From positions 234,066-298,065 of the forward strand of contig CAKVMH010000001.1 of assembly GCA_934772045.1 (NCBI GenBank): DNA of 64,000 nucleotides, read 5' to 3'. The notes beneath the pieces were generated by a model, which saw only the letters and a program-made list of their open reading frames with translations, was not told the DNA's origin and did no database searches. Made by a program: the position numbers and the translations under genes. Each line of letters begins with the position of its first letter. Positions within the stretch are counted from its first letter, which is position 1. Positions 4,781 to 63,545 of the stretch are shown piece after piece. This DNA is from an uncultured Clostridia bacterium. GTDB taxonomy: Bacteria > Bacillota > Clostridia > Christensenellales > UBA1242.

Positions 4781-5055
4781 TTATAATTTCCTAATAAATT
4801 TAATTTTGGCAAGTCAAGCCCTGCCTTGTTTTTTGGTGTGCATTTTAAAATTCGTTTAACAGTTAAAACTAAACCCCAAATTGCCCCAAAATTTAAAATT
4901 GAATTAAAACCATATTCACTGCAAGTTGGCAAAAAATGGCAACTTTTTTGCATGCCGTGCCTAATTATTAGCCTGTAAACCCAAATTAACAACAAAAATA
5001 TTGCCGTTAAAGGAAAGCACAATATATAGTACACTTTAAACCAAAACTCAGCCAT
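4768..5055 (-). CDS. yidD: Membrane protein insertion efficiency factor YidD
   Basis: CHFLPTCSEYG motif; overlaps the rnpA stop and the yidC start. Confidence 0.85.
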   Translation of the reverse strand: MAEFWFKVYYILCFPLTAIFLLLIWVYRLIIRHGMQKSCHFLPTCSEYGFNSILNFGAIWGLVLTVKRILKCTPKNKAGLDLPKLNLLGNYKWKC

Positions 5056-5434
5056 TTATAGGCTCGCTTTGATTTGTTTTTGCTTCACTAGGTGTAGTTT
5101 CCACAAGCAAATTTGCCTTTTTTAATGCACGCAAAAGTTCCACTTCAATTTCCACACTTGTTTTATTTTTTGCCATTTCTTTTGCGGTTATAACATAATT
5201 TTTATTTGCAAATTTTTCAATATTCAACCTGCACGCTTCGCTTATAATTCGCTTAACCCTGCCACGCACAACGCTGTTGCCAACTTGTTTGCTGACAGAT
5301 ATGCCAATCTGTGGGGTTGACCGCCAATTTTTTGTGTAATGAATGTAAAAACTGGTGCTGTGCACTGTTTCACCCTTTTTGTAAACATAGTTAAATTCTT
5401 TACGCTTTTTCAGCCTGTTCGATTTTTTAAGCAT
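5048..5434 (-). CDS. rnpA: Ribonuclease P protein component
   Basis: Basic 128-aa protein with NSVVRGRVKRII (RNR-like motif), directly downstream of rpmH. Confidence 0.9.
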   Translation of the reverse strand: MLKKSNRLKKRKEFNYVYKKGETVHSTSFYIHYTKNWRSTPQIGISVSKQVGNSVVRGRVKRIISEACRLNIEKFANKNYVITAKEMAKNKTSVEIEVELLRALKKANLLVETTPSEAKTNQSEPING

Positions 5435-5443
5435 AAATAATCC

Positions 5444-5578
5444 TTATTTGCTTAATTCTTTTTTGCCTTTGTTTCTGCGCCTTTTTAAAACCCTACGTCC
5501 AGATAATGATTTCATTCTAGCCCTGAAACCATGCACTTTACTGCGTTGTTTTTTCTTTGGTTGGTAAGTTTGCTTCAT
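5444..5578 (-). CDS. rpmH: 50S ribosomal protein L34 (44 aa; absent from the ORF track)
   Basis: Manual translation gives [54 protein letters not shown] at 5583-5590 (minus strand); stop lies 9 nt before the rnpA ATG. Confidence 0.95.
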
Positions 5579-5924
5579 AATTCCTCCTAAAATTTTTAAT
5601 GGTTAAAAAAATAAACCAACGCCTAAATTTCGTTAGTTCGACAACAAAATTAAAGGCGTCAATAGGCATGTCAAGGCAATAAACCTTTCAGTAAACATAA
5701 ATTAGCAAAAAGCCAATTTATTTTTAGATAAATCTAAAACGGAAAAATCCTATTATCTTCAATATAACAAAAAAAACAACCATTGTCAAGAAATAATTTC
5801 TTTCAATAGGTTTGTTTTTTCTAAATGTAAATAAATCAATTCATTTACTTTTTATCAGTCCTGCCCGAATGCGTGAATACGTGTTGCTGAAAATGTAGTT
5901 TTAATATGTACTACTGTTGTTTCT

Positions 5925-6191
5925 CTAGCCCTTCAATCCACGAGATTGTCGGTCCATATCTTCGACTACGATGTCGTAAATTTCGCCCAAAGTACGGCAA
6001 TATTTAAGCACGTCCCAAGGTTCGTTTGTGTGAAAATGAATTTTAATTGTTTCGCTGTATTTGCCTAAACCATCACCGACAGCAATAAGGCAATCGCCTT
6101 TAAAATTCTTTAAAAAATAATCCCTTACTTTATCTTCTTCCAAATTTTCACCTGAAATTAAAAGTTGTGTGTCATACCTAAATTCAATCAT
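5925..6191 (-). CDS. Stand-alone 88-aa protein resembling the central domain of YloV/FakA (DAK2-fusion family)
   Basis: GDCLIAVGD...IKIHFHTNEPWDVLKYCRTLGEIYDIVVEDMDRQ matches, from memory, the GDSLLVV..D...KVHVHT..PG.VL......G.L..IKIENM..Q pattern. It has its own GGAGA SD. Confidence 0.5.
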   Translation of the reverse strand: MIEFRYDTQLLISGENLEEDKVRDYFLKNFKGDCLIAVGDGLGKYSETIKIHFHTNEPWDVLKYCRTLGEIYDIVVEDMDRQSRGLKG

Positions 6192-6380
6192 AAATTCTCC
6201 TTAAATTTTTACCTGCCTTACCCCATGCTCGTTAGCAAAAAAGTGCAATGAACAGCCTTTATATAAAATTATGCAACAAAGCAAAAAAAAAGTAAAGCAA
6301 TGTTAAACACTCTTTACTTTAATTTTTAATTGATAAAGCACAAAGCTTGTGCATTTACTTTAAAGTTAATAAAATAACGC

Positions 6381-6914
6381 TTAATTAATATATTTGTCTG
6401 CACTTATATTGTCGAACTTTGCATTTTCATATTCGTCGATAATACTAGACGAACTATCATATTTAACATTATCACAAATTACAGGTTGTTCTAAAATAAC
6501 CTGCGGGTGAGTGTATTTTTCAAGGTATTTATATAAAACAATTGTCACATAACAAGTGTCTGAACAATTGTGTCTAAAATCTGGGCTATAAATTTCAAAT
6601 GCATCAACTTCACCAATCTCATTTTCAGGTATCGCTTGCAAAATGTCACATATTGTTGGCTTAAAGAAAAAGTCGCAATCGTCTAATTCGATTTCAATTG
6701 TATCCACAACCTTTAATTTAGACTGGTCACACAAAACCCTACTCGAAGGGTTCCACGCGAACGATTGACAAGAAATATCCGATGTGCCTATGTATGTTAA
6801 AGGCAGATTTACATTCTTTTCAAAACATAAAGAGGGTTTACCATCGTTTGATAAACGCATTAAAGGTTTAATTCTGAAAGCATAGTCAATCATCATAAAT
6901 TTGTCAAAATTCAT
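6381..6914 (-). CDS. Hypothetical protein (177 aa, Cys-rich, no recognisable domain)
   Basis: Long ORF; the ATG at 6914 is preceded by a GAGGG SD. Confidence 0.5.
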   Translation of the reverse strand: MNFDKFMMIDYAFRIKPLMRLSNDGKPSLCFEKNVNLPLTYIGTSDISCQSFAWNPSSRVLCDQSKLKVVDTIEIELDDCDFFFKPTICDILQAIPENEIGEVDAFEIYSPDFRHNCSDTCYVTIVLYKYLEKYTHPQVILEQPVICDNVKYDSSSSIIDEYENAKFDNISADKYIN

Positions 6915-7122
6915 ATTAACCCTCACTATTGTTATATTCTTAGTGTATCACAAATCAACAATTTTTGCAATATATTGATACAATTTTTGCAAATCTATTT
7001 CCAAAACAAATTGAATGTGTTAATATATGTATGTAAGTTTAAGTGTACCTTTTAAAAATGGCAATATTAACGCGATTTATTATATTAACTTTAATTTTAA
7101 AACAGCTTAATACTTTCTTTAT

Positions 7123-7147
7123 GCGGTTATGGCGGAATGGCAGACGC
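7123..7147 (+). pseudogene. 25-nt 5' fragment of tRNA-Leu(CAG) (acceptor and D arm) with duplicated leader
   Basis: 7101-7147 duplicates 7293-7339 (leader CTTAATACTTTCTTTAT plus GCGGTTATGGCGGAATGGCAGACGC), then diverges into element A. Confidence 0.8.
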
Positions 7148-7267
7148 TCGTCACAATCTGCGCTTTGGCAATTTTGCTTTTCGCAAACTTCGCTTGTTGC
7201 TTGATTGCTCCTCTATCCCTTTAAACGCACTCTGTTAGCCTTTAAAGGGAACCCTGGAAACTAGCGC
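7148..7267 (+). repeat. tRNA-linked two-hairpin element, copy A
   Basis: Starts TCGTCACAATCTG; hairpin 1 TTTTGC/GCAAA; conserved TTGCTCCT; hairpin 2 TCCCTTTAAA/TTTAAAGGGA (7216-7250). Ends with CCTGGAAACTAGCGC, which is antisense to the tRNA-Leu anticodon arm. Confidence 0.75.
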
Positions 7268-7314
7268 TAACTTTATCTTAACTTACCATTAATACAACTT
7301 AATACTTTCTTTAT

Positions 7315-7400
7315 GCGGTTATGGCGGAATGGCAGACGCGCTAGTTTCAGGTACTAGTGGGAGTTATCCCTTGCAGGTTCAAATCCTGTTAACCGCACCA
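7315..7400 (+). tRNA. tRNA-Leu(CAG), class II, CCA encoded
   Basis: Manual cloverleaf: acceptor GCGGTTA/TAACCGC, anticodon stem CTAGT/ACTAG with loop TTCAGGT, long variable arm, T-loop TTCAAAT. Confidence 0.95.
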
Positions 7401-7453
7401 AAAAAATTTTAAACAATTAAATTGTATTTCTAATTTTATAACAAATTCACTTA

Positions 7454-7478
7454 GGATTTGAACCCAAGGGTTCAATCC
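7454..7478. repeat. Palindromic pair of tRNA T-arm-like segments
   Basis: GGATTTGAACCC-AA-GGGTTCAATCC, a T-arm-like sequence facing its own inverted copy. Confidence 0.6.
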
Positions 7479-7675
7479 CTGTCGGGGCGGACCGCACGTC
7501 ATCAAGGCTCCCAAACAAGTTTTGCTTTGCAAACTTTTTGGGATAAAGGAAACACCAAGCATCAAAACGATACATTTGAAATTTATTTCAAATTGAGTAC
7601 AAAGCGCAGGTGTTGACGCGCTCCCCTCGTTACGCTAAAATCTGCTCATTGGGGCAGTTTTTTTAACGCTACTCG

Positions 7676-7691
7676 CCTGTTAACCGCACCA
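7676..7691 (+). pseudogene. 16-nt 3' fragment of tRNA-Leu (CCTGTTAACCGCACCA)
   Basis: Exact repeat of 7385-7400, followed immediately by element copy B. Confidence 0.8.
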
Positions 7692-7799
7692 ACGTCGCAA
7701 CCTGCGCTGAGTAATCGTTTTGCAGACGCAAAACTCATTTTACACTTGGTTGCTCCTTTTCCCCTACAAACCCACTTCGTTTGGCTTTGTGGGGGCTCC
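7692..7799 (+). repeat. tRNA-linked two-hairpin element, copy B
   Basis: ACGTCGCAACCTG start; hairpin 1 GTTTTGC-AGAC-GCAAAAC; TTGCTCCT; hairpin 2 CCCCTACAAA.../...TTTGTGGGGG. Confidence 0.75.
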
Positions 7800-7884
7800 A
7801 TTTTATGACAAACAATAGATAAACAATAAGATTAACTGTTACTGAAGCGAACTCAATAACTAGCGGTGGGTGCCTAAAAAGTAG

Positions 7885-7911
7885 CACAAGTTTTAGCGAC
7901 TTGTGTTTTTT
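7885..7911 (+). terminator. Rho-independent terminator (shared tRNA-locus module)
   Basis: GCACAAGTTTTAGCGACTTGTG plus T6. Nearly identical copies occur at 9672-9700 and 27025-27051. Confidence 0.75.
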
Positions 7912-8064
7912 AAGGTAAATTTGTTAAATTATTATTTCGTTCTACTCAGTTTTTAAATATCTTGTTTTGTTAATAAACTAATTTATTTCGCTTCTCTCAT
8001 AAATATGGTTTGTTGTATCCACAAAAAAAATTCACCCATAAGGTGAATTTTTAAATTTAAAGCT

Positions 8065-8628
8065 TTATTTTGTTGAAGCGACAGTTTCCAAAACACCGCC
8101 AGTAAGACCTAACAGCATAAAGTAACCACCCACGCTAACTAATGTTTTAACATCACTCAACATTCCACTATGATTTGCAAGTTTGTTTGCAACAACAAAG
8201 AAAGTGATGAAAGCAACGAGTGCAAAAACAGCCAAAGCAATGCCTAAAATAATGTTCAGTAAATTAAACCTAATGCCAAGCAAAGATATAATTTCAAATA
8301 CAATCACAACCATACTTACAAGCACTGTAAGGAAATAGCACCAAGCAAACAAATTAGTTACAAATGCTGTATCTTCAGCATTTTTTAAGAAAATTAAACT
8401 ATTTGCACCTGTTGTAAAATCTGTTGAATTTTTACCATTAAAAAGTGCTGTGATAACATCTGTACCTTTAATAGGTTCACTATTAGATACAACACCTGCA
8501 ATATTTGATTTAGTTACAAAACAAGGCATGAATAAAGTGCAAACAGTAACTAATGCAAGGACAATAATACAAATTGAAAAGATAACCCTTTTCATGTTAT
8601 TTTTCTTTTTTGATTTTTTCTTTGCCAT
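8065..8628 (-). CDS. Hypothetical membrane protein (187 aa, about 4 TM)
   Basis: Lys-rich N-terminus followed by hydrophobic segments; GGGGAGG SD; hairpin terminator at about 8025-8055. Confidence 0.6.
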   Translation of the reverse strand: MAKKKSKKKNNMKRVIFSICIIVLALVTVCTLFMPCFVTKSNIAGVVSNSEPIKGTDVITALFNGKNSTDFTTGANSLIFLKNAEDTAFVTNLFAWCYFLTVLVSMVVIVFEIISLLGIRFNLLNIILGIALAVFALVAFITFFVVANKLANHSGMLSDVKTLVSVGGYFMLLGLTGGVLETVASTK

Positions 8629-8753
8629 AATTCCTCCCCTTTTATTTCATCATAAAAAATTTAACCTTCCGCTGTCAAGCAAATTTCTAAAACTTTTTAA
8701 AGCAATTTCGTAACTTTAATTTTGCGAAAACAAAATTCCATAATGCTATCAAG

Positions 8754-9542
8754 TTATATTTTTTTGCAGATATATAACATGTGGTTAGAAATACCCTGCA
8801 TTTCCAAATTTTCACATGTGTTTAAATGATATTTTTTGAAAAGTTCAAATTCATCGTCCGACATTTGAAATTCTTTCGTTTTTTCCATAATGTCCAAAAT
8901 ACTGTCAGTTGTTGCAGAATGTAGTTTTTTAACATGTTTATTTTTAAACAAATTCTCAAACTCTTTAATCCTGAACCCAGTAAAAACTTGTTCTGGATAT
9001 TGTTTAACTTTATAATTGTTATCAAAATTTTCTTCCAAACCAGCTTTTAAATTTCCATTCATGTAACAATCAAATATAAAAGAATCAACAGGCAAGTATG
9101 CAAACATAATTATACCGTTTGTTTTTGTCACGCGGATTGCTTCATCAATAGCTTTTTCTTGGTCTTCTCTCGTATAAAGATGATACATTGGCCCAAAAGA
9201 CAAAACCATATCAAAACTTTCATCTTCTAATTTGTCCAATTTGATAGCATCTCCTTGAAAGGCTATCAAGTTCTTCAACCCTTTTGCATTACCTTTTAAA
9301 ACTTGAAGATTATGTTTCACATATTCTACTGACGTAACATCCATACCCTTTTTTGCAAGTGTAATGGAATACCTGCCCGTTCCAGCACCAATTTCTAATA
9401 TTTTCATTTTGTTTTTTATATATTTGTCAATGTACGTCATAGTGGTAAAGTATTCAAGTTGCCCATGCCTGCTTTTAACAAGCCTAGCATCTTCATCATA
9501 GTTGTTGTAAACTTTATCCACAATCTTTTTCCTGTTGTCCAC
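8754..9542 (-). CDS. Class I SAM-dependent methyltransferase
   Basis: ILEIGAGTGRYS motif I. I prefer the GTG start at 9542, preceded by an AAGGAGA SD, over the upstream ATG at 9590. Confidence 0.8.
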   Translation of the reverse strand: MDNRKKIVDKVYNNYDEDARLVKSRHGQLEYFTTMTYIDKYIKNKMKILEIGAGTGRYSITLAKKGMDVTSVEYVKHNLQVLKGNAKGLKNLIAFQGDAIKLDKLEDESFDMVLSFGPMYHLYTREDQEKAIDEAIRVTKTNGIIMFAYLPVDSFIFDCYMNGNLKAGLEENFDNNYKVKQYPEQVFTGFRIKEFENLFKNKHVKKLHSATTDSILDIMEKTKEFQMSDDEFELFKKYHLNTCENLEMQGISNHMLYICKKI

Positions 9543-9671
9543 ACTTTCTCCTTTCCAATTATTTTCTTCATAAAGAATAACATAGATCAATTATTTTTTC
9601 AAAATGTATTACATTCTAAACCTCATATTTTTCAAAATTATCATCAAATCGCAAGGTTGAATTTCATTAAC

Positions 9672-9700
9672 AAAAAAACACAAGTCGCTAAAACTTGTGC
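9672..9700 (-). terminator. Rho-independent terminator after tRNA-Ser
   Basis: The minus strand reads GCACAAGTTTTAGCGACTTGTG plus T7. Confidence 0.75.
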
Positions 9701-9710
9701 TTTCGAGAGT

Positions 9711-9798
9711 TGGCGCAGAGAGGGGGATTTGAACCCCCGAAGGCTTTCACCTTATCGCTTTTCGAGAGCGACACGTTCGACCACTCCGACATCTCTGC
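9711..9798 (-). tRNA. tRNA-Ser(CGA), class II, CCA encoded
   Basis: Acceptor GCAGAGA/TCTCTGC, anticodon stem TCGCT/AGCGA with loop CTCGAAA, long variable arm, T-loop TTCAAAT. Confidence 0.95.
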
Positions 9799-9960
9799 AT
9801 AATGAATAACTTTGTCTTACAAATATTTTGTTTAATAAATTAAATAATGTGGGTGAACGTGTTTAAAGTCTCCTAAAAATAGAAAATTTTTGGGAATCAA
9901 GGAAAAGCCAAGTTTATGCTGAAATTTGCGTTTAGCAAATAAATTTAAACTTGTGCTTTG

Positions 9961-9984
9961 ACGCTCGACCACTTTTGTATCTGC
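9961..9984 (-). pseudogene. Degenerate 5' fragment of tRNA-Ser with duplicated leader
   Basis: The minus strand reads ATTAT-GCAGATACAAAAGTGGTCGAGCGT, versus ATTAT-GCAGAGATGTCGGAGTGGTCGAACGT in the intact gene. It is followed by a truncated copy of the GCACAAGTTT terminator arm. Confidence 0.5.
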
Positions 9985-10223
9985 ATAATAGATGATTTAG
10001 TCCTGCAAACATTCTGTTTGATTACCCCAACCTAAGCATGCGTATTTATAATAGCACAAAATATTAACAATGTCTATCTAAGAAATCGGTTTTTATGAAA
10101 ATATTGTTTTCGCACAACAAAAAAGTTATCCTCATTATTTTATCTTTTGTGGATAACTTTAAAACATTTTAATTAGCTATTTCCGCTGTTTTTCTTGTGA
10201 AAGAAAACCCTAAAACTAAGTTA

Positions 10224-11321
10224 CTATCTTGATTTTACTGGCAAAATAAGGAATGTGAAATCATCACCTTCGCAAGGTGTAATGATACATGGTTGGATTG
10301 CGCTGTTAAGTTTAATTTTGACATATGGGTTATCAATAACGCGCAAGCAGTCGCTGAAATATTTTGAGTTGAAAGATATGTTTAAATCATTACCCTTCAC
10401 CCCAACAGTAATATTTTCCTTTGTGTTACCAATTTCGCTATTTGATGTGAGCATCATATTCTTTTCTTTGATGTCAAATTTAACCAAATTGTTTTTATCA
10501 ATACGGCTCAAAACACTGGCGCGGTCAATTGCGTCTTCAAGTTGCTCTTTATTGATAGTAACAATTGTGCCAAAATCTTTAGGCACGATTTGTTTATAGT
10601 TAATAAATTGCCCATCAATTAAGCGATTAATAATAATTGTGTCGCCTAAATCGACCATAATATTGTTTGAATGCACATAAACCTTAACAGTGCCTTCACC
10701 GTCAAGCATGCGGATAATTTCATACAAATTTTTGCCAGGAATGATAAGTTTAAAGTCGCTTGTAGACATAACCAACTGCTTATTTGCGATTGAAAGACGG
10801 CAACCGTCCACAGCAACCGCGCGGATACTTGTTCCAGTTGTTTCAATCAAAATACCCTTTAAAATAGGGCGACTATCGTCCTGCGCAACAGCGTAGTATA
10901 CATTGTTGATAAGTGTGCGGAAATCTTCTTTGTTAATTTCAAAGAAATTATTTTTTTCCACTTCCTTCAACCCAGGGAACTCACTAACTTCCATACATTG
11001 CAACACGCCTTCGCTGTCCGTGTAGGAAATTTTAAGTTGATTGCGTTCGTTCAATTCGCACTCAATTTGTTCATTTGTAAGTTTTTTAATATACTCACCA
11101 AACAACCTGCCAGGGACAACTGTTTCACCCGCACTTATAACTTCTGCACGAATAGTTTTTTCAATGCTAATTTCAAGGTCGGTTGCCGTAAGCACAAGTT
11201 TATCGTCAGCACAAACCATTTTAATGCCTTCAAGGATTTGGCTTGTAGTTTTACCACTGATAGCTTTTGAAACAACACCAATTGCTTCGCTAAGTTCAAG
11301 CCCATCACATCTAAATTGCAT
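10224..11321 (-). CDS. dnaN: DNA polymerase III beta sliding clamp
   Basis: 365-aa three-domain clamp-like sequence; GGAGT SD. Confidence 0.95.
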   Translation of the reverse strand: MQFRCDGLELSEAIGVVSKAISGKTTSQILEGIKMVCADDKLVLTATDLEISIEKTIRAEVISAGETVVPGRLFGEYIKKLTNEQIECELNERNQLKISYTDSEGVLQCMEVSEFPGLKEVEKNNFFEINKEDFRTLINNVYYAVAQDDSRPILKGILIETTGTSIRAVAVDGCRLSIANKQLVMSTSDFKLIIPGKNLYEIIRMLDGEGTVKVYVHSNNIMVDLGDTIIINRLIDGQFINYKQIVPKDFGTIVTINKEQLEDAIDRASVLSRIDKNNLVKFDIKEKNMMLTSNSEIGNTKENITVGVKGNDLNISFNSKYFSDCLRVIDNPYVKIKLNSAIQPCIITPCEGDDFTFLILPVKSR

Positions 11322-12489
11322 ATTTACTCCTTTTATCCATGCCTAACTTACGGAAATTCAAGTTTTTATATCTAAAAGATATAACCCCTAGCGCCTAAAT
11401 TTTTTGCAAGTTTTAGACCGCAATTTTTACAACATCATATTAGCAAACAAAACCCAATATGTCAACCAAATGCGTCATTTTTTGTCGAATTTTTTTGGCT
11501 TTATATACTTAAAAATAGTTTGTTTTAAGAGTATTGCGCAACCCACACGCCAGCGCTGTTTTTCTAAATAATTTTTGATTTTTTGGGTAGTGATTTTTTT
11601 ATTAGGCGATGTGCAAATGTGGATAACTTTACCCCACCACAACATTTAGTGGCTTTCGACAAAATTTGCTAAAATTTGCAACAATTTTTATCCACATTTT
11701 CTGTGTATAACCCTGTGAAAAGTTATGTGCATAACAAAAAAAACGATGTGGACAACCCCTTCTAAACCCCTTAAATATAGGCGATTAGGGCAAATTTTGA
11801 CTGTTTTCTTTTAAGTTTTCTTTATATTAAATTCACGCTCGCGCTTATTAAATTTTAAGTTAACATGTAATATATGTACGCACGCGTATTACGCCCGTTT
11901 TTCTTTTAATATGTAAAAAATAAAATCTGAACGCGAACTTTATATTTATTACCTTTTTATATAAAGTTTAAAAAATCAAATTAATTATCACCAATATTTA
12001 TTTTTATGCGTTAAATTTATTTAAATCCCCTTAAAAGCATCATAATACTGCGGATTATAACCTGCACAAGTTAAATAAAACCAAACATCAATTTATCGTA
12101 TGTCATGATTAGCTCACAAACCTGCCATCCTCACATAAACTTTTGCATTAACAAAATTTCCATTTCAAACATTCAACAAAACAACACCTTGTATCTTTCT
12201 TGGCATAAATTTGCCTTTACATTATATACACGCACGCGAACTTAAAGTAAAAAATTACAAATTTAATATTTTATTTCTTAATATTAGTTTAACTACATTT
12301 TAAGTAATACAAAAAAATATATTCAAATTTTAAAAGTTTTTATACATAAAACAAATTTTCTACCTTTTAAGTTTGTGCACTCGTATTATATAAGTTAACT
12401 AAAAGTATCAGAAAACAAAATTTACGTAAATTTCAAATCACATTGACAAGTTATCCACATTGTGGTACAATATCAACAAGGAGAATATT
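11322..12489. other. Putative oriC: DnaA-box cluster plus AT-rich unwinding region between divergent dnaN and dnaA
   Basis: Perfect TTATCCACA boxes at 11618-11626 (rc), 11688-11696 and 12451-12459. One-mismatch boxes at 11702-11710, 11726-11734 and 11747-11755. About 500 bp of very AT-rich DNA at 11900-12420. Confidence 0.7.
12443..12471 (+). promoter_or_regulatory. dnaA promoter with an embedded DnaA box
   Basis: TTGACA (12443-12448), 17-nt spacer containing TTATCCACA, then extended -10 TGGTACAAT. AAGGAG SD lies downstream. Confidence 0.7.
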
Positions 12490-13839
12490 ATGTTTTTGCT
12501 TGACCAATGGAAAAAAGTTTTAAACAGATTGGAAGCCGAAGTTACAGCGGTGACATTCGATTTATGGATTAACACCCTTACTCCAATCCAGTACGCAAAT
12601 GATGAACTGATTTTAATGGCACCAAGTGTTACAGCGAAAAACCAAGTTAACCAACCAGGCATTTTTGAAAAGATAACAAAATGCGTTAGGGAAGAATTTA
12701 ACTCATACACTTTTGTTCGCGTAACCGAAAAGCAAGAATACGAAGAGAGTGTCCGTAAGCAGGAGCAAGAACTTGAAAAGATAATGTCCAATGTGACTAA
12801 TCTAAAATCTAAGTTCAACCCAAAATACACTTTCGACGCGTTTGTTGTTGGTAAATCAAACCAAGTTGTATGTGCAGCAATGCAAAATGTTGCTGAACAT
12901 CCAAGTGAAAAATTTAATCCACTGTTTATCTATGGTGGTGTTGGGCTTGGTAAAACTCACCTGCTTCATGCGGTGGGTAATTACCTAAACACGCATAGGC
13001 CTGACCTTAATGTCCTTTATGTTACATGTGAAAAGTTTACTAATGATTATGTTGATTCAATCCGCAAAGGTAAAGACAATTCAAACAACGATTTTAGGGA
13101 CAAGTATCGTAACGTAGATGTGCTTATGATTGACGACATTCAATTCATAAGCAACAAAATGGGTATTCAGGAAGAATTCTTCCACACATTCAATGACCTT
13201 TATCAAAACAATAAACAAATCATCATTGCTTCCGATCGTTCACCAAAAGAAATGACAGCTTTGGAAGAAAGGTTAAGGAGCCGTTTCAGTTCTGGCCTTA
13301 TCCAAGACATTCAGGAACCAGATTATGAAACAAAAGTTGCAATTATCAAAAAGAAATGTAGCCAAGAAGGTTATTTAGTCGACGACGACGTTATTGACTT
13401 CGTCGCATTAAAAACCGGCACCAACATTCGTGAAATGGAAGGCATATTAAGTAAAGTTGTGTTTTACAGCGGTTTGCTTGGCAAAACTCATGCAAGCATG
13501 GAAGACGCTAAGGAAGCACTTAAAGATTATGTTGAAGAAGAAAAAACAAATTTAAACGCAGAAAAAATTATGAACACTTGTTGCGACTTCTTCAAAATCA
13601 GCAAGGAAGATTTAATCGGTAAAAAGAAAAATAAAGAAATTGTTGAACCAAGGCAACTTTGCATTTATCTCATAAACGACATGTTAAACATTCCGCTAAC
13701 CGCAATAGGCGACTTATTCGGCGGAAGGGATCACACAACAATCATGCATGCAAGGGATAAAATAAGTAATCAAATTAAAGTTAATCCACATGTTAAAACT
13801 TTGGTAAACGATATCCGCAGTAGATTGTTGAAATATTAA
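12490..13839 (+). CDS. dnaA: Chromosomal replication initiator DnaA
   Basis: Walker A GGVGLGKTHLL, Walker B MIDDIQF, C-terminal DNA-binding region ...GRDHTTIMHA. The ATG at 12490 follows the SD. Confidence 0.95.
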   Translation: MFLLDQWKKVLNRLEAEVTAVTFDLWINTLTPIQYANDELILMAPSVTAKNQVNQPGIFEKITKCVREEFNSYTFVRVTEKQEYEESVRKQEQELEKIMSNVTNLKSKFNPKYTFDAFVVGKSNQVVCAAMQNVAEHPSEKFNPLFIYGGVGLGKTHLLHAVGNYLNTHRPDLNVLYVTCEKFTNDYVDSIRKGKDNSNNDFRDKYRNVDVLMIDDIQFISNKMGIQEEFFHTFNDLYQNNKQIIIASDRSPKEMTALEERLRSRFSSGLIQDIQEPDYETKVAIIKKKCSQEGYLVDDDVIDFVALKTGTNIREMEGILSKVVFYSGLLGKTHASMEDAKEALKDYVEEEKTNLNAEKIMNTCCDFFKISKEDLIGKKKNKEIVEPRQLCIYLINDMLNIPLTAIGDLFGGRDHTTIMHARDKISNQIKVNPHVKTLVNDIRSRLLKY

Positions 13840-26934: not shown

Positions 26935-27005
26935 AAAATGAGGACCCCACAAAGCCAAACGAAGCGGGTTTGAAGGGGAAACGAGAAAGACAAGAGAGAA
27001 GGCAA
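26935..27005 (-). repeat. tRNA-linked element, partial copy E (hairpin 2 half)
   Basis: The minus strand reads TTTCCCCTTCAAACCCGCTTCGTTTGGCTTTGTGGGGTCCTCATTTTAT, about 85 percent identical to the copy B hairpin 2 and its CATTTTAT tail. Confidence 0.65.
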
Positions 27006-27024
27006 CATTTTGTGTTTTTTAACT

Positions 27025-27051
27025 AAAAAACACAAGTTGCTAAAACTTGTG
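27025..27051 (-). terminator. Rho-independent terminator (shared tRNA-locus module)
   Basis: The minus strand reads GCACAAGTTTTAGCAACTTGTG plus T6. Confidence 0.75.
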
Positions 27052-27056
27052 CAAAA

Positions 27057-27175
27057 CGCATCAGGGCTCCCACAAAGGCTATTAAGTGCCTTTGATGGGA
27101 ATGAGGAGCAAACGGCAAAAGGTCAGAGGTTGTTTTTACAAAAAACAACCCGACAAATATGCCAGGTTGCGACGA
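27057..27175 (-). repeat. tRNA-linked two-hairpin element, copy C (begins at the nucleotide after the tRNA CCA)
   Basis: The minus strand reads TCGTCGCAACCTGG...; hairpin 1 GGTTGTTTTT/AAAAACAACC; TTGCTCCT; hairpin 2 CCCATCAAAGGC/GCCTTTGTGGG. Confidence 0.75.
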
Positions 27176-46977: not shown

Positions 46978-47146
46978 TAAGTTATTTTGAAAATGTAAAA
47001 ACACTTGTTTAATGTAGCAAAAATTGCTAAAATGTAAACAGGTGTTTTTTAAATAATTTTAACTTGCGTATGTAAAGCGGTTAATTGTGGATATAATAAA
47101 ACACAAATTTGCAAAAGTTTTCATACTCGACCATTTATCTTAATAT

Positions 47147-47181
47147 GCGCCAGACGAAAATGGATAGCACAATGGTCTTCG
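47147..47181 (+). pseudogene. 5' fragment of tRNA-Arg(TCG) with duplicated leader
   Basis: ATCTTAATAT-GCGC...ATGGATAGCACAATGGTCTTCG is shared with the intact gene at 47310-47355. Nucleotides 5-13 are replaced by CAGACGAAA. Confidence 0.75.
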
Positions 47182-47183
47182 TT

Positions 47184-47290
47184 TCGTCACAACTCGCTAT
47201 TGAACTAGTTTGCGCGTTACACTTGCAAACTTCGCTTATTAGCGGTTGCTCCTTAACCCCTTCAAAACATTCGTTTTGAGGGGACCCCAG
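47184..47290 (+). repeat. tRNA-linked two-hairpin element, copy D
   Basis: TCGTCACAACTCG...; hairpin 1 GTTTGC/GCAAAC; TTGCTCCT; hairpin 2 CCCTTCAAAAC-attc-GTTTTGAGGGG. Confidence 0.75.
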
Positions 47291-47319
47291 AATGGTTCCT
47301 CGACTATTAATCTTAATAT

Positions 47320-47394
47320 GCGCTCATGGTGTAATGGATAGCACAATGGTCTTCGGAACCATTAGTGAGGGTTCGAATCCTTCTGGGCGCGCCA
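47320..47394 (+). tRNA. tRNA-Arg(TCG), CCA encoded
   Basis: Acceptor GCGCTCA/TGGGCGC, anticodon stem ATGGT/ACCAT with loop CTTCGGA, T-loop TTCGAAT. Confidence 0.9.
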
Positions 47395-58844: not shown

Positions 58845-58873
58845 TTGACATTATGTAATGTTTGTGATAATAT
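58845..58873 (+). promoter_or_regulatory. Promoter of the large non-coding locus
   Basis: TTGACA (58845-58850), 17-nt spacer, extended -10 TGATAATAT. Confidence 0.6.
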
Positions 58874-58879
58874 AATAAC

Positions 58880-59527
58880 ATAACGAAGGCGCAGTATTCT
58901 AGTCGTCTAGGTTAAGTGAGGATGCTGAAACAAGCATAATTGGCACAACTATGAAGTTTCTGGTGCTGGCTTTGATTGCCCAAATTGGGGCTGGTGCTGG
59001 GAGTTAAGGTTTTTGGGTGGTGTGTAACGGCATACACATTTAAGCCCAACTATCGCGGAGACCCAAGTGGGTAGGTTGAGTGTTATTAGCTGCTTATCTA
59101 TCGCTTGGATTGGGAACCTGCATACGGCGAAAGTTGTGTGCAGTGTAGCCTGCTTTGAGTGGTTAAACTGGGATTGAGCGACAACTTAAATTTATTGCAA
59201 AGTACACGCATACTTTTAGGTTGCTTTTGAAATTTTAACCGCAAAATAAAGCTAAATTTAACTGATGACGTTAAGGAAAACTTCTAGGCTGTTCGTATGA
59301 GGTGCTTTGGGGATTATAGTGTGGTCTCAGTGGCGATTCGGTGCAAGTTTTGCATAAAGGGAAACCGCTTTGTTGGTAACGGCAAAGTGCAAGATTGGGA
59401 AATCCAACCGAACCTTATGCCGCAAGGTTTACTCAAGGTATTGCCTTCGTAATTTGGAAACAACACTTTTAAGTGTGTAAATAAACATAAAAAGAAAAAA
59501 GCAGGTAAGTTTTCACCTGTTTTTTTC
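58880..59527 (+). ncRNA. Candidate large structured RNA (~650 nt), class unassigned (size range of ROOL/OLE-type RNAs)
   Basis: About 1 kb with no credible ORF, visibly G+C-richer than its flanks, bounded by a consensus promoter and the terminator CAGGT-aagttttc-ACCTG plus T8. Many local hairpins, e.g. an 11-bp GAAA-capped stem at 59118-59143 and AACCTT-atgccgc-AAGGTT at 59411-59429. Possible closing helix ACGAAGGC (58883-58890) with GCCTTCGT (59443-59450). Confidence 0.6.
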
Positions 59528-63059: not shown

Positions 63060-63545
63060 ATTAATTGGTCACTCTGAGTGTTGGCAATTACACTCTATAT
63101 GATATGTACACCATGAACGTTAGTGAATATGTCGTACTAAGTGTGTCGCCCTGTTAAGTTTGTCACCCTTTTATGTATGTCACCCTGAGCGCACGCGAAG
63201 GGTCTTGCACGAAGCGCTTTTTACGATCAATATATCAAAAGCAAAACAAGTTTTGCAAGATTCTTCGCTTCGCTAGAATCTGAAGATTTTTTCGAAATCA
63301 TTCAGGTTCTTCGCTATGCTAGAATGACAGATAACTGAAAATATACATAAACATAAATAACATTATTTTTTTAAAATCATTCAGGTTCTTCGCTACGCTC
63401 AGAATGACACGTGTATTCAATCTTATGTCATTCTGTTAAGTATGTACTATGTAAGTATGTCACCCTGAGTGGAACGAAGGGTCTTGCGCGAAGCGTTTTT
63501 TACCATTAATGTTTTAATCAACGCTACGCTCAGAATGACAGATGT
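63060..63545. repeat. Cluster of at least 8 REP-like units (GTCAYYCTGAG / GAAGGGTCTTGCRCGAAGCG / CATTCAGGTTCTTCGCTAYGCT(C)AGAATGACA)
   Basis: Units at about 63069, 63131, 63146, 63162, 63179-63218, 63255-63285, 63297-63330, 63376-63409, 63427, 63459-63497 and 63520-63541, in both orientations. Confidence 0.75.

Follow-up and report, generated by a model that had tools for sequence, protein, structure and literature searches.

Palindrome-associated transposable elements (PATEs), which are miniature IS200/IS605 elements, and REP/RAYT sequences are ∼100 nt long, multicopy, and folded as DNA in a strand-specific manner; they have neither inverted terminal repeats nor short target duplications, and they imply HUH single-strand chemistry. 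Transfer origins (oriT) of the MOB_P and MOB_Q types lie upstream of mobC and relaxase genes, consist of hairpins followed by an invariant ∼10-nt end with a precise junction, and define units that run from nick to nick. Islands and integrative mobilizable elements (IMEs) that integrate into tRNA genes insert inside these genes or at their ends (anticodon loop, T-arm/acceptor boundary, CCA end) and bring a replacement part, and an intact gene and a truncated repeat then flank the insert. Here, we describe a repeat family that shares features with each of these: a structured module of 105 to 110 nt, named E, with seven copies in a 64-kb window (the whole 64,000-nt stretch analyzed, from contig CAKVMH010000001.1 of an uncultured Clostridia bacterium) and at least 124 further copies elsewhere. 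In its composite form, the module follows a truncated copy of the target (X) and precedes a linker of 3 to 13 nt, a short complement of the uninterrupted target (the junction complement), and 0 to 3 kb of filler or cargo, after which a second copy of the flank (X') and the rest of the target (Y) make up an intact tRNA gene, 5S rRNA gene, or oriT hairpin. The module is probably a small, nonautonomous, single-strand-type mobile element with an unusual architecture. Tentatively, and at a probability of roughly 45%, we read the repeats as a discrete, structured mobile DNA module that would work as a single-strand nick-and-join element related to oriT.

Two further groups of systems resemble parts of this architecture. 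Integron attC sites are imperfect palindromes of 60 to 140 nt in which structure is kept over sequence; they are recombined as folded single strands, as the module may be, occur in arrays, and bound promoterless cargo, comparable to a CAT-like gene that lies between two module copies in one contig. The bridge RNAs or seekRNAs of IS110/IS1111 and the guides of group I and II introns carry nucleotides complementary to the uninterrupted target, and in the group I internal guide, the part for the 3' flank likewise comes before the part for the 5' flank and aligns both exons.

The module nevertheless fails at least one defining test of each known family that could be tested. It has the subterminal hairpins of PATEs and, like them, no inverted repeats and no target duplication, but unlike PATE and REP sequences it shows no fixed tetra- or pentanucleotide target, has no TnpA (among the 25 most recurrent neighbor families listed) or RAYT gene nearby, and combines an 8- to 18-nt junction-spanning complement with long gene-restoring duplications and conservation across phyla. 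Unlike an oriT, it is dispensable in at least one element family, is found with three MOB families and in both orientations, and is mostly an orphan in chromosomes. Compared with tRNA-integrating islands, its units are only 0.15 to 3 kb long, contain no integrase gene, and end in the same terminal module at dozens of targets, including 5S rRNA genes, terminators, and protein-coding DNA; a junction complement is present, and the displaced side can be the 5' part of a gene with its promoter. The RYYYAAC/GTTRRRY cores of attC sites are absent from the module ends, as are IntI and an attI platform, and the targets are diverse; no IntI-type integrase was among the 25 most recurrent neighbor families listed. 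In contrast to bridge RNAs and introns, the complement lies outside the conserved module and no loop covaries with the target. No DEDD transposase appeared in the listed Pfam results for neighboring open reading frames (ORFs), and as an intron, the module would be too small, lack ribozyme motifs, and vary in its orientation to the target gene. A classical miniature inverted-repeat transposable element derived from a DDE transposon was ruled out by the absence of terminal inverted repeats and of a fixed short target duplication.

The module and its relatives

The window covers a chromosomal origin region with dnaA, dnaN, rnpA, gidA, and trmE, contains seven tRNA genes and one OLE RNA (ARAGORN and Rfam), and is 100% identical over 18.6 kb to one metagenome contig in the ENA. 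A first-pass annotation had reported five to six dispersed copies of a two-hairpin repeat in it. We built a covariance model from copies A, B, C, and D and ran it over the whole window with filters off, recovering seven copies, of which four were strong (97 to 108 bits) and three weaker. The earlier observation is real and partly confirmed, larger than had been stated, and under-counted. Copies A, B, C, and D, all correctly recognized, align over their full length (E ≤ 6e-23). A copy beside a tRNA-Ser gene (copy H, 9867 to 9964, −; 33.8 bits, E = 9e-7) had been overlooked. A supposed compact plus-strand copy at 7491 to 7545 turned out to be the hairpin 2 half of a complete minus-strand copy (copy G, 7506 to 7619; 35.7 bits, E = 2.8e-7), and a feature described as hairpin 2 only is a weak full-length match (26941 to 27055, −; 29.5 bits, E = 1e-5) with a good hairpin 2, in which a tRNA-type terminator hairpin does stand where hairpin 1 should be. 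Chance is excluded because of the model E values, the covariation described below, and recovery of the module in >100 unrelated contigs.

The module begins with N-CGTCRCAA and ends with GGGRNCCCY. Information reaches ∼2 bits per position at CGTC, CAA, and GGG..CC and is close to zero at the positions that border N-CGTC and GGGRNCCCY on the outside; the module is therefore a discrete unit. It contains three helices: a long-range helix, P1 (GCAAC...GTTGC), which in many copies is extended by way of a bulged base, and hairpins 1 and 2. The motif TTGCTCCT had been thought to be single stranded; its TTGC is the 3' strand of P1, a covarying helix formed with the GCAA of the 5' motif, so that half of the motif is paired and only the other half fits the earlier description.

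When 83 distinct copies were aligned by fitting to the model, standard pairs filled 91.9% of cells compared with 66.8% in shuffles, 22 of 23 pairs changed on both sides, and sliding the partner columns by 1 to 3 positions lowered pairing to ≤59%. P1 also covaried when the complementary strand was aligned with MAFFT in a structure-neutral way. This strand had the more stable fold in 110 of 125 copies (−42.8 versus −37.0 kcal/mol) and the lower fold z score after shuffling (−5.6 versus −4.7; p = 2e-4). Because wobble counts depend on the alignment, we judged the strand from these energy comparisons, and the complementary strand is probably the folded one. There are no terminal inverted repeats, CGTCRCAA and GGGRNCCCY not being inverted repeats of each other, and there is no short target-site duplication, including at bare insertions; where repeats exist, they are 13 to >80 nt long and one sided.

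To sample other genomes, we scanned one genome per GTDB species with the pattern CGTCRCAAYYYG-N35-65-TTGCTCCTNNNNCC, obtaining at least 118 contigs in which the covariance model confirmed at least 124 further copies. Counts outside the window refer to the 124 listed copies, and contigs or loci are coded L001 and so on. The hosts are mostly gut metagenome-assembled genomes (MAGs) of Clostridia, Christensenellaceae, and Monoglobus, together with Paludibacteraceae and other Bacteroidales, Coriobacteriales, and members of the candidate phyla radiation (Saccharibacteria, Doudnabacteria, and other Patescibacteria); a cultured host is Christensenella intestinihominis (AF73-05CM02 being one genome with the module). 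The model did not support a few pattern matches from other phyla, which we regard as chance matches. A contig from a relative of the window organism (L202; methyltransferase 69% identical) has two tandem copies at 6606 to 6830 with no adjoining tRNA.

No family in Rfam 15 overlaps the module, whether in the whole window at gathering thresholds, in positions 7000 to 8000 at E ≤ 10, or in 15 related loci; the scans matched only tRNA, rRNA, OLE, and the ZTP riboswitch, none of them overlapping the module, and gave no intron or ribozyme match in the window at gathering or in 7000 to 8000 at E ≤ 10. A module-plus-mobC query had no blastn match among PLSDB plasmids, the pattern scan found none in IMG/VR viral contigs, and no description turned up in the searchable literature by topic or motif string. 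As far as tested, the module is unannotated and, as first proposed, belongs to no known class.

Composite units, junction complements, and targets

Copies A, D, and H of the window have the composite form. Copy A (7148 to 7253, +; 108.3 bits, E = 8.5e-26) aligns from N-CGTCACAA to GGGAACC. Its X (7097 to 7147, +), a truncated duplicate of 51 nt, comprises the promoter region of tRNA-Leu and tRNA positions 1 to 25; it terminates exactly at the 5' end of the module and, aligned as a direct repeat, scores 46 over 51 nt against X' (7289 to 7339, +). X' and the downstream Y form the intact tRNA-Leu-CAG gene (7315 to 7400). The junction complement, gaaactagcgc (7257 to 7267, +), is the reverse complement of tRNA-Leu positions 24 to 34, an 11-nt exact match at offset +4 after the module that spans the X'/Y junction. 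Copy D (47184 to 47287, +; 97.2 bits) follows a 56-nt X (47126 to 47181, +) with the promoter region and positions 1 to 36 of tRNA-Arg-TCG, and X' (47299 to 47355, +) with Y gives the intact gene (47320 to 47394). Because a 9-nt block (positions 5 to 13) is replaced, this X cannot fold as a tRNA. Its junction complement, aatggttc (47291 to 47298, +), is the reverse complement of positions 37 to 44 and, as the target is the anticodon stem, also resembles a direct copy of the end of X. The first-pass annotation had seen tRNA 5' fragments of 25 nt before A and 35 nt before D; the former is present as positions 1 to 25, the latter spans positions 1 to 36, and in both cases the duplicate extends beyond the tRNA fragment into the promoter region, to a length of 51 nt for A and 56 nt for D.

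Copy H lies 69 nt upstream of the intact tRNA-Ser-CGA gene (9798 to 9711, −) and is preceded by a degenerate tRNA-Ser 5' fragment of ∼20 nt (X; 9965 to 9984, −) that reads gcagaTACAAAagtggtcga versus gcagaGATGTCGGagtggtcga in the gene. By sequence reading, its junction complement is acacgttc (9855 to 9862, −), which in reverse complement gives the tRNA-Ser sequence gaacgtgt that spans the end of the fragment. The truncated tRNAs before D (47130 to 47142) and H (9970 to 9980) have A-rich sequence in place of the block at tRNA positions 5 to 13, which comprises the acceptor 3' part, U8, and the 5' strand of the D-stem, and the remainder is nearly identical to the gene; the same kind of block change is thus seen in two independent tRNAs.

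Two strong copies lie directly behind tRNA 3' ends, as had been read before. Copy B (7692 to 7798, +; 103.8 bits) directly follows a 16-nt tRNA-Leu 3' fragment ending in CCA, and copy C (27064 to 27175, −; 105 bits) begins 1 nt after the CCA of tRNA-Arg-ACG (27252 to 27176, −). The sequence directly 3' of copy C, tgatgcgt (27056 to 27063, −), matches the reverse complement of the tRNA-Arg-ACG 3' end (acgcacca) at 7 of 8 positions, with a 5-nt exact core in the listed flank complementarity. The reverse complement of tRNA 3'-end fragments comes after copy G, and between tRNA-Leu and this minus-strand copy lies a nest of tRNA 3'-part fragments (7440 to 7500) with a T-arm-like gggttcaatccc plus acceptor strand and a second aggatttgaaccc, suggesting repeated insertions and rearrangements at the tRNA-Leu locus.

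Composite units are widespread in the family. In 27 copies (23 nonredundant), a flank of 13 to >80 nt that ends at the module 5' end (≤3 nt) recurs 0 to 190 nt downstream. Gene-restoring direct repeats at both ends were found for window copies A, D, and H, for L013, L029, L041, L047, and L080, and for others; restoring an interrupted gene is the classical logic of tRNA-integrating islands. The truncated copy has decayed in at least four cases, namely window D and H (positions 5 to 13 replaced), L013 (A58C), and L029 (no CCA). In L047 (Rfam), a 23S rRNA gene is followed by an intact 5S rRNA gene (Y plus X') and then the unit; the intact 5S gene is followed by one terminator, and the displaced 39-nt 5S 3' part beside the module keeps a different one. 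The two flank copies in L041 also have different terminator hairpins, each internally compensated. As read from these sequences, L047 and L041 suggest that one flank copy comes from elsewhere.

In larger units, genes lie as cargo between the module and X'. Two copies in L118 (2718 to 6206) bracket 3.3 kb with a CAT-like acetyltransferase, an HD-domain hydrolase, a transglutaminase-like protein, and two tRNA genes, and the cargo between module and X' in L037 encodes two membrane proteins. Tandem arrays occur in L026, L089, L120, and L202 and at the tRNA-Leu locus of the window. No site-specific recombinase gene was found inside the 0.15- to 3-kb units.

The junction complement is an 8- to 18-nt reverse complement of the uninterrupted target, often located 3 to 26 nt after the module. 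Except for the outlier L049, it covers the last 0 to 10 nt of X' and the first 6 to 10 nt of Y, with a nearly constant reach into Y and a variable reach into X. An exact match of at least 8 nt (up to 16) was present in 12 of the 23 nonredundant copies, compared with a shuffle chance of 0.8% per copy, and in 11 of these 12 it ended 6 to 10 nt past the junction. Besides the 11-nt and 8-nt complements of window copies A and D, examples are acttggctggagacg at the 5S rRNA gene of L047 (15 nt), tcgttgttgaagatat in L089 (16 nt), cgctctatccagc in L049 (13 nt), tccttggtaag in L080 and L029 (11 nt), and cgtggaggttcgccccct in L013 (18 nt, with one mismatch to X'Y and a longest exact stretch of 12). The L013 complement matches the mutated X, not X'. 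A by-product of a staggered break capped by the module would account for the constant 8- to 10-nt reach into Y, but we rejected this idea, which leaves the foreign terminators and the cargo before X' unexplained.

The end of X itself is complementary (≥6 nt) to a segment 10 to 25 nt after the module in 21% of copies versus 6% in shuffles, with a maximum of 14 nt in L025, so that the module is usually enclosed by a flank stem; at bare insertions, the enclosing stem is the host hairpin. The module interior showed neither exact-match enrichment nor column-to-flank covariation above the permutation null. On these two results we rejected a guide inside the module, as in a bridge RNA, and any targeting information must therefore lie outside the conserved module.

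All seven window copies lie within 300 nt of a tRNA gene and occupy four of the seven tRNA loci; the tRNA-Gly, -Met, and -Glu genes (54.8 to 55.6 kb) have no copy nearby. The first-pass annotation had stated that every copy in the window is tRNA adjacent, which is true (7/7) but does not extend to the family, in which 88 of 124 copies (71%) have no tRNA within 300 nt. Nineteen copies abut a tRNA end (≤5 nt), always by the CGTC end, 12 of them on the opposite strand touching tRNA position +1 and 7 on the same strand directly behind CCA; a further 17 lie within 300 nt. The enrichment near tRNA genes is strong, yet it is neither universal nor fixed in orientation, which argues against an RNA cotranscribed with tRNAs in a tRNA-related function. 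We conclude that the link is a target preference and not a functional fusion.

Insertions in tRNA genes fall in the anticodon loop (after position 36) or T-loop, at the T-stem/acceptor boundary, or in the D-arm region; the module has also entered a 5S rRNA gene, terminators, repeats, coding DNA, and an oriT hairpin. Flank logos reach at most ∼0.4 to 0.5 bits at the nearest positions and contain no conserved tetra- or pentanucleotide target; the only pattern at the target cuts is that four insertions lie at the T-stem/acceptor boundary after GGTTCRAnyCC. In L118 (2718 to 6206), the upstream flank of each copy is the 3' end of another module (hairpin 2 plus ACCC), so that a module end can itself be the site of insertion. 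An array of ∼135-nt host repeats in L016 (2300 to 2700), each ending in a GCGAGC-loop-GCTCGC hairpin, is the target of the six near-identical copies of MAG RGIG4132; a ZMP/ZTP riboswitch lies upstream of purE in the same contig (2122 to 2205).

Mobility, transfer regions, and competing explanations

Single genomes can hold copies with 92 to 99% identity at separate sites, e.g., on four contigs of one Paludibacteraceae MAG and as six copies in MAG RGIG4132. Bare 105-nt modules sit in the loops of host hairpins, with paralogous units nearby that have no module. Presence and absence can also be compared in a very abundant human-gut mobilizable element with DUF6076, AAA_25, NikA/MobC, a PF03432 relaxase, an excisionase, and a tyrosine integrase. 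The module lies between the AAA_25 gene and mobC in L108, L116, and L011 and is absent from L205 to L207; the relaxase of the latter is 92% identical to that of L108, and the element flanks are ∼95 to 100% identical. The 106-nt module stands in place of 13 nt, CGCCGGAACGTCT, of the module-less form, the first 9 nt of which resemble the module's own first nine (CGTCGCAAC); a similar core of 9 to 10 nt thus occupies the module position, and the module junction is precise between GTTGCGACG and N. The L205 to L207 element (∼5000 to 13000) has an HTH_17 excisionase and, upstream, methyltransferase and ResIII helicase genes; a search with its relaxase gave >2,700 matches (E ≤ 1e-40), with at least 87% identity among the 120 matches listed.

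At 10 loci, the module lies 50 to 230 nt upstream of, and on the same strand as, a NikA/MobC plus PF03432 relaxase operon or a MobA/MobL gene (MOB_P and MOB_Q types), and the region upstream of a mob operon is the usual position of an oriT. At three further loci, where its relative orientation is the opposite, it is inside a hairpin (gcaataAGTGTAGCTCACTACACTtattgc) adjoining a Mob_Pre gene. When 130 ORFs located ≤1.2 kb from the module were assigned to Pfam families, the three relaxase families were among the most recurrent, followed by large serine recombinases and ParA, and no DDE or Y1 transposase, TnpB, reverse transcriptase, or integron integrase was among the 25 most recurrent neighbor families listed. 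The flank adjoining the module in the MobA/MobL elements is TAAGTGCGCCCTT on the complementary strand, which presumably resembles the RSF1010/pIP501 nick region, and we likewise take the core TAAGTGCGCCCT beside the module in L030 and L087 to be RSF1010/pIP501-like. Most copies (>100) are chromosomal and intergenic with no mob or transfer gene nearby.

In the nick-and-join reading, the module would be the cis-acting end of an element that an HUH enzyme processes in the form of single-stranded DNA; this enzyme would most likely be a conjugative relaxase supplied in trans. Cleavage and joining would take place on the complementary strand at the invariant end between GTTGCGACG and N; on that strand, hairpins, GTTGCGACG, and junction follow each other in the usual inverted repeat/nick order of a transfer origin. 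Successive nicks would delimit the mobile unit (X', cargo, junction complement, module), which would thereby carry a copy of the sequence that followed the module at its previous site. Upon entry into the same conserved gene in another cell, the carried copy could restore the gene while the resident segment is displaced beside the module, and joining into the same gene would give exactly the order Y^ - X'^ ... E^ - X^. The junction complement beside hairpin 2 could pair with both flanks and may be a splint for choosing the target and for bringing the ends into alignment, comparable to IS608 guide-to-cleavage-site pairing or to P1/P10 of the group I internal guide. We infer both the enzyme and this role of the complement from the arrangement of the units. 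Genes for tRNA and rRNA may be favored as targets because they are conserved between species, often single stranded and folded, and tolerant of insertion only if restored. Relaxases link the strand that they transfer to a second target copy and are not known to integrate into sites unlike their nick site. Relaxase-mediated oriT-specific recombination and integration has been described, e.g., for TrwC of R388 (PMC3264647).

Several observations weigh against this reading. About half of the copies with duplicated flanks have no clear junction complement. The 16 nt 5' of 24 reconstructed target cuts share no common motif that resembles the module end, which led us to reject pseudo-nick sites as targets and means that a relaxase would need something beyond sequence recognition. 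None of the window copies has a relaxase gene nearby, and no enzyme is tied to the small copies; where relaxases are present, they belong to three unrelated families, with Mob_Pre in the opposite orientation, and the context fits insertion into oriT hairpins at least as well as being an oriT. Empty sites for the window's own loci were not found: metagenome contigs with relatives of the ORF beside tRNA-Arg-TCG lacked a tRNA-Arg there, synteny was missing for the relatives of the methyltransferase beside tRNA-Ser/tRNA-Leu, and the window's own species was 100% identical in other samples. The energy difference between strands persists partly without G-U pairs, and G-U counts vary with the alignment, so the strand assignment is not decisive. 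The model also leaves unexplained how a new junction complement and a new X' arise.

A more far-reaching version, which we consider doubtful, is that the element is programmable, with a ∼105-nt folded DNA end for recognition by an HUH relaxase-like enzyme and a complement splint that would choose the site by pairing with both sides of the target phosphodiester. Pairing would align the flanks for seamless excision, and the element-borne copy would keep essential tRNA and rRNA genes intact. The target would then be set by nucleic acid pairing and not by protein, as in IS608 and bridge RNA systems, but on a conjugative strand.

Among the alternatives, none of which we consider likely, the strongest takes the module for a palindrome-associated miniature of an IS200/IS605-type transposon, moved by a Y1 HUH TnpA encoded elsewhere. 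Pairing between guide and cleavage site defines that family and is established logic for IS608, and the junction complement could be an extended form of it. A length of ∼105 nt with neither inverted terminal repeats nor a short target duplication, a hairpin near each end, the better folding of one strand, and the bare modules in hairpin loops would all fit. However, neither flank has a conserved 4- to 5-nt target motif, neither a Y1 transposase nor TnpB was among the 25 most recurrent families listed (130 ORFs, 8-kb loci), the long duplicated target segments are foreign to the family, and the module interior does not covary with the flanks.

Somewhat less likely still, the module could be a cis-acting part of transfer regions, such as a site bound by the relaxosome or a signal (single-strand origin or priming) for synthesis of the complementary strand, with chromosomal copies as orphans spread by recombination and not by transposition of their own. 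This would account for the oriT- or single-strand-origin-like position upstream of mob genes in at least 10 loci, the strong single-strand folding (z of about −5), the modular way in which the sequence is swapped into and out of a conserved mobilizable element, and the presumed RSF1010/pIP501-like core beside the module in L030 and L087. It accounts poorly for the >100 chromosomal intergenic copies without transfer genes and for junctions that are nucleotide precise at many different targets, and the junction complement and restoring copy point to a dedicated insertion process.

We regard as improbable a retroelement-like (SINE-like) origin, in which the module would be copied through RNA, template switching by a reverse transcriptase at the ends of mature tRNAs would yield a hybrid cDNA, and homology would guide its integration, by analogy with the Mauriceville retroplasmid of Neurospora mitochondria. 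Consistent with this idea, the junction of 19 copies coincides exactly with a tRNA end, either the mature 5' end on the opposite strand or the CCA 3' end on the same strand, 1 to 3 apparently untemplated nucleotides lie between X and CGTC, and one end is precise, with a variable segment behind the conserved 3' end in larger units. Yet promoter sequence lying upstream of the transcription start is part of the duplicated flanks, both ends of the bare module are sharp, many targets are not RNA genes, and no reverse transcriptase was among the 25 most recurrent neighbor families listed.

The first-pass annotation had left open whether the repeat is a structured RNA cotranscribed with tRNAs or a DNA hairpin element. 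A small RNA, leader, or ribozyme made with tRNAs, with incidental flanking duplications, is marginally less probable again, despite the strong covariation, the location of A, D, and H behind tRNA-type promoters and of C directly behind a tRNA, and 12 other loci at which the complementary strand of the module ends exactly at tRNA +1, where RNase P could trim such a transcript. Orientation relative to tRNAs varies, 71% of the listed copies have no tRNA within 300 nt, gene context is inconsistent, no Rfam family matches, the complementary strand folds more stably (110/125 copies), and the presence/absence and multicopy behavior are typical of mobile DNA. Thus, the earlier interpretation is partly supported: sharp ends, copies at multiple sites, presence/absence, and target duplication favor its DNA-element half, and the tRNA cotranscript is unsupported. 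A 5'-cleaving ribozyme of the hepatitis delta virus (HDV)-like or hatchet-like type was rejected, as P1 does not begin at the first nucleotide and there is no Rfam match.

The least probable explanation, that the units are attL/attR scars left by deletion of integrase-driven islands once in tRNA genes, agrees with the tRNA-segment direct repeats and one-sided intact gene of the classical island picture and with the tyrosine or large serine recombinase genes near the module in a few loci, but it would require dozens of integrase specificities to leave the same 105-nt remnant with a precise junction at dozens of unrelated targets, and the module is internal, not at an att end, in the mobilizable element with an integrase and occurs as bare insertions without any repeat.

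If the mobile-DNA reading is true, an abundant small element shared across phyla is reshaping tRNA and rRNA loci and gut transfer regions, and many pseudo-tRNA fragments and odd duplications in MAGs would be explained. Orphan copies could be chromosomal transfer origins or recombination hot spots. The junction complement matters most in this respect: it suggests recognition of the integration site through base pairing on single-stranded DNA, and DNA insertion would then be directed in a new and possibly reprogrammable manner. The interest of the family rests on its cross-phylum conservation, its interplay with conjugation modules, and this complement architecture, and its presence in a cultured Christensenella strain makes the idea directly testable.

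Other features of the window

A near-identical terminator hairpin (GCACAAGTTTTAGCGACTTGTG plus a T run) lies behind several tRNA loci of the window, at 9674 to 9704 (−), at 7885 to 7905 (plus-strand sequence gcacaagttttagcgacttgtg), and at 27020 to 27050 (−); this is the hairpin that stands at the hairpin 1 position of the weak copy (26941 to 27055). The OLE (ornate large extremophilic) RNA at 58870 to 59463 (+) is full length and scores 341 bits against a gathering score of 50; its presence puts the host with anaerobic lineages of the Firmicutes-like type. The genes dnaN (10224 to 11321, −) and dnaA (12460 to 13839, +) are divergent and separated by a 1.1-kb spacer, which is unusual for an origin region, and the module copies that flank this spacer show no consistent strand bias. 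A separate 105-nt repeat at 63171 to 63275 (L001 18719 to 18823) is 85.7% identical to sequence just outside the start of the window and contains a hairpin of the type gattcttcgcttcgctagaatc. Very similar hairpins (gattcttc...gctcagaatgaca) are targets of module insertion in L006, L019, and L037.

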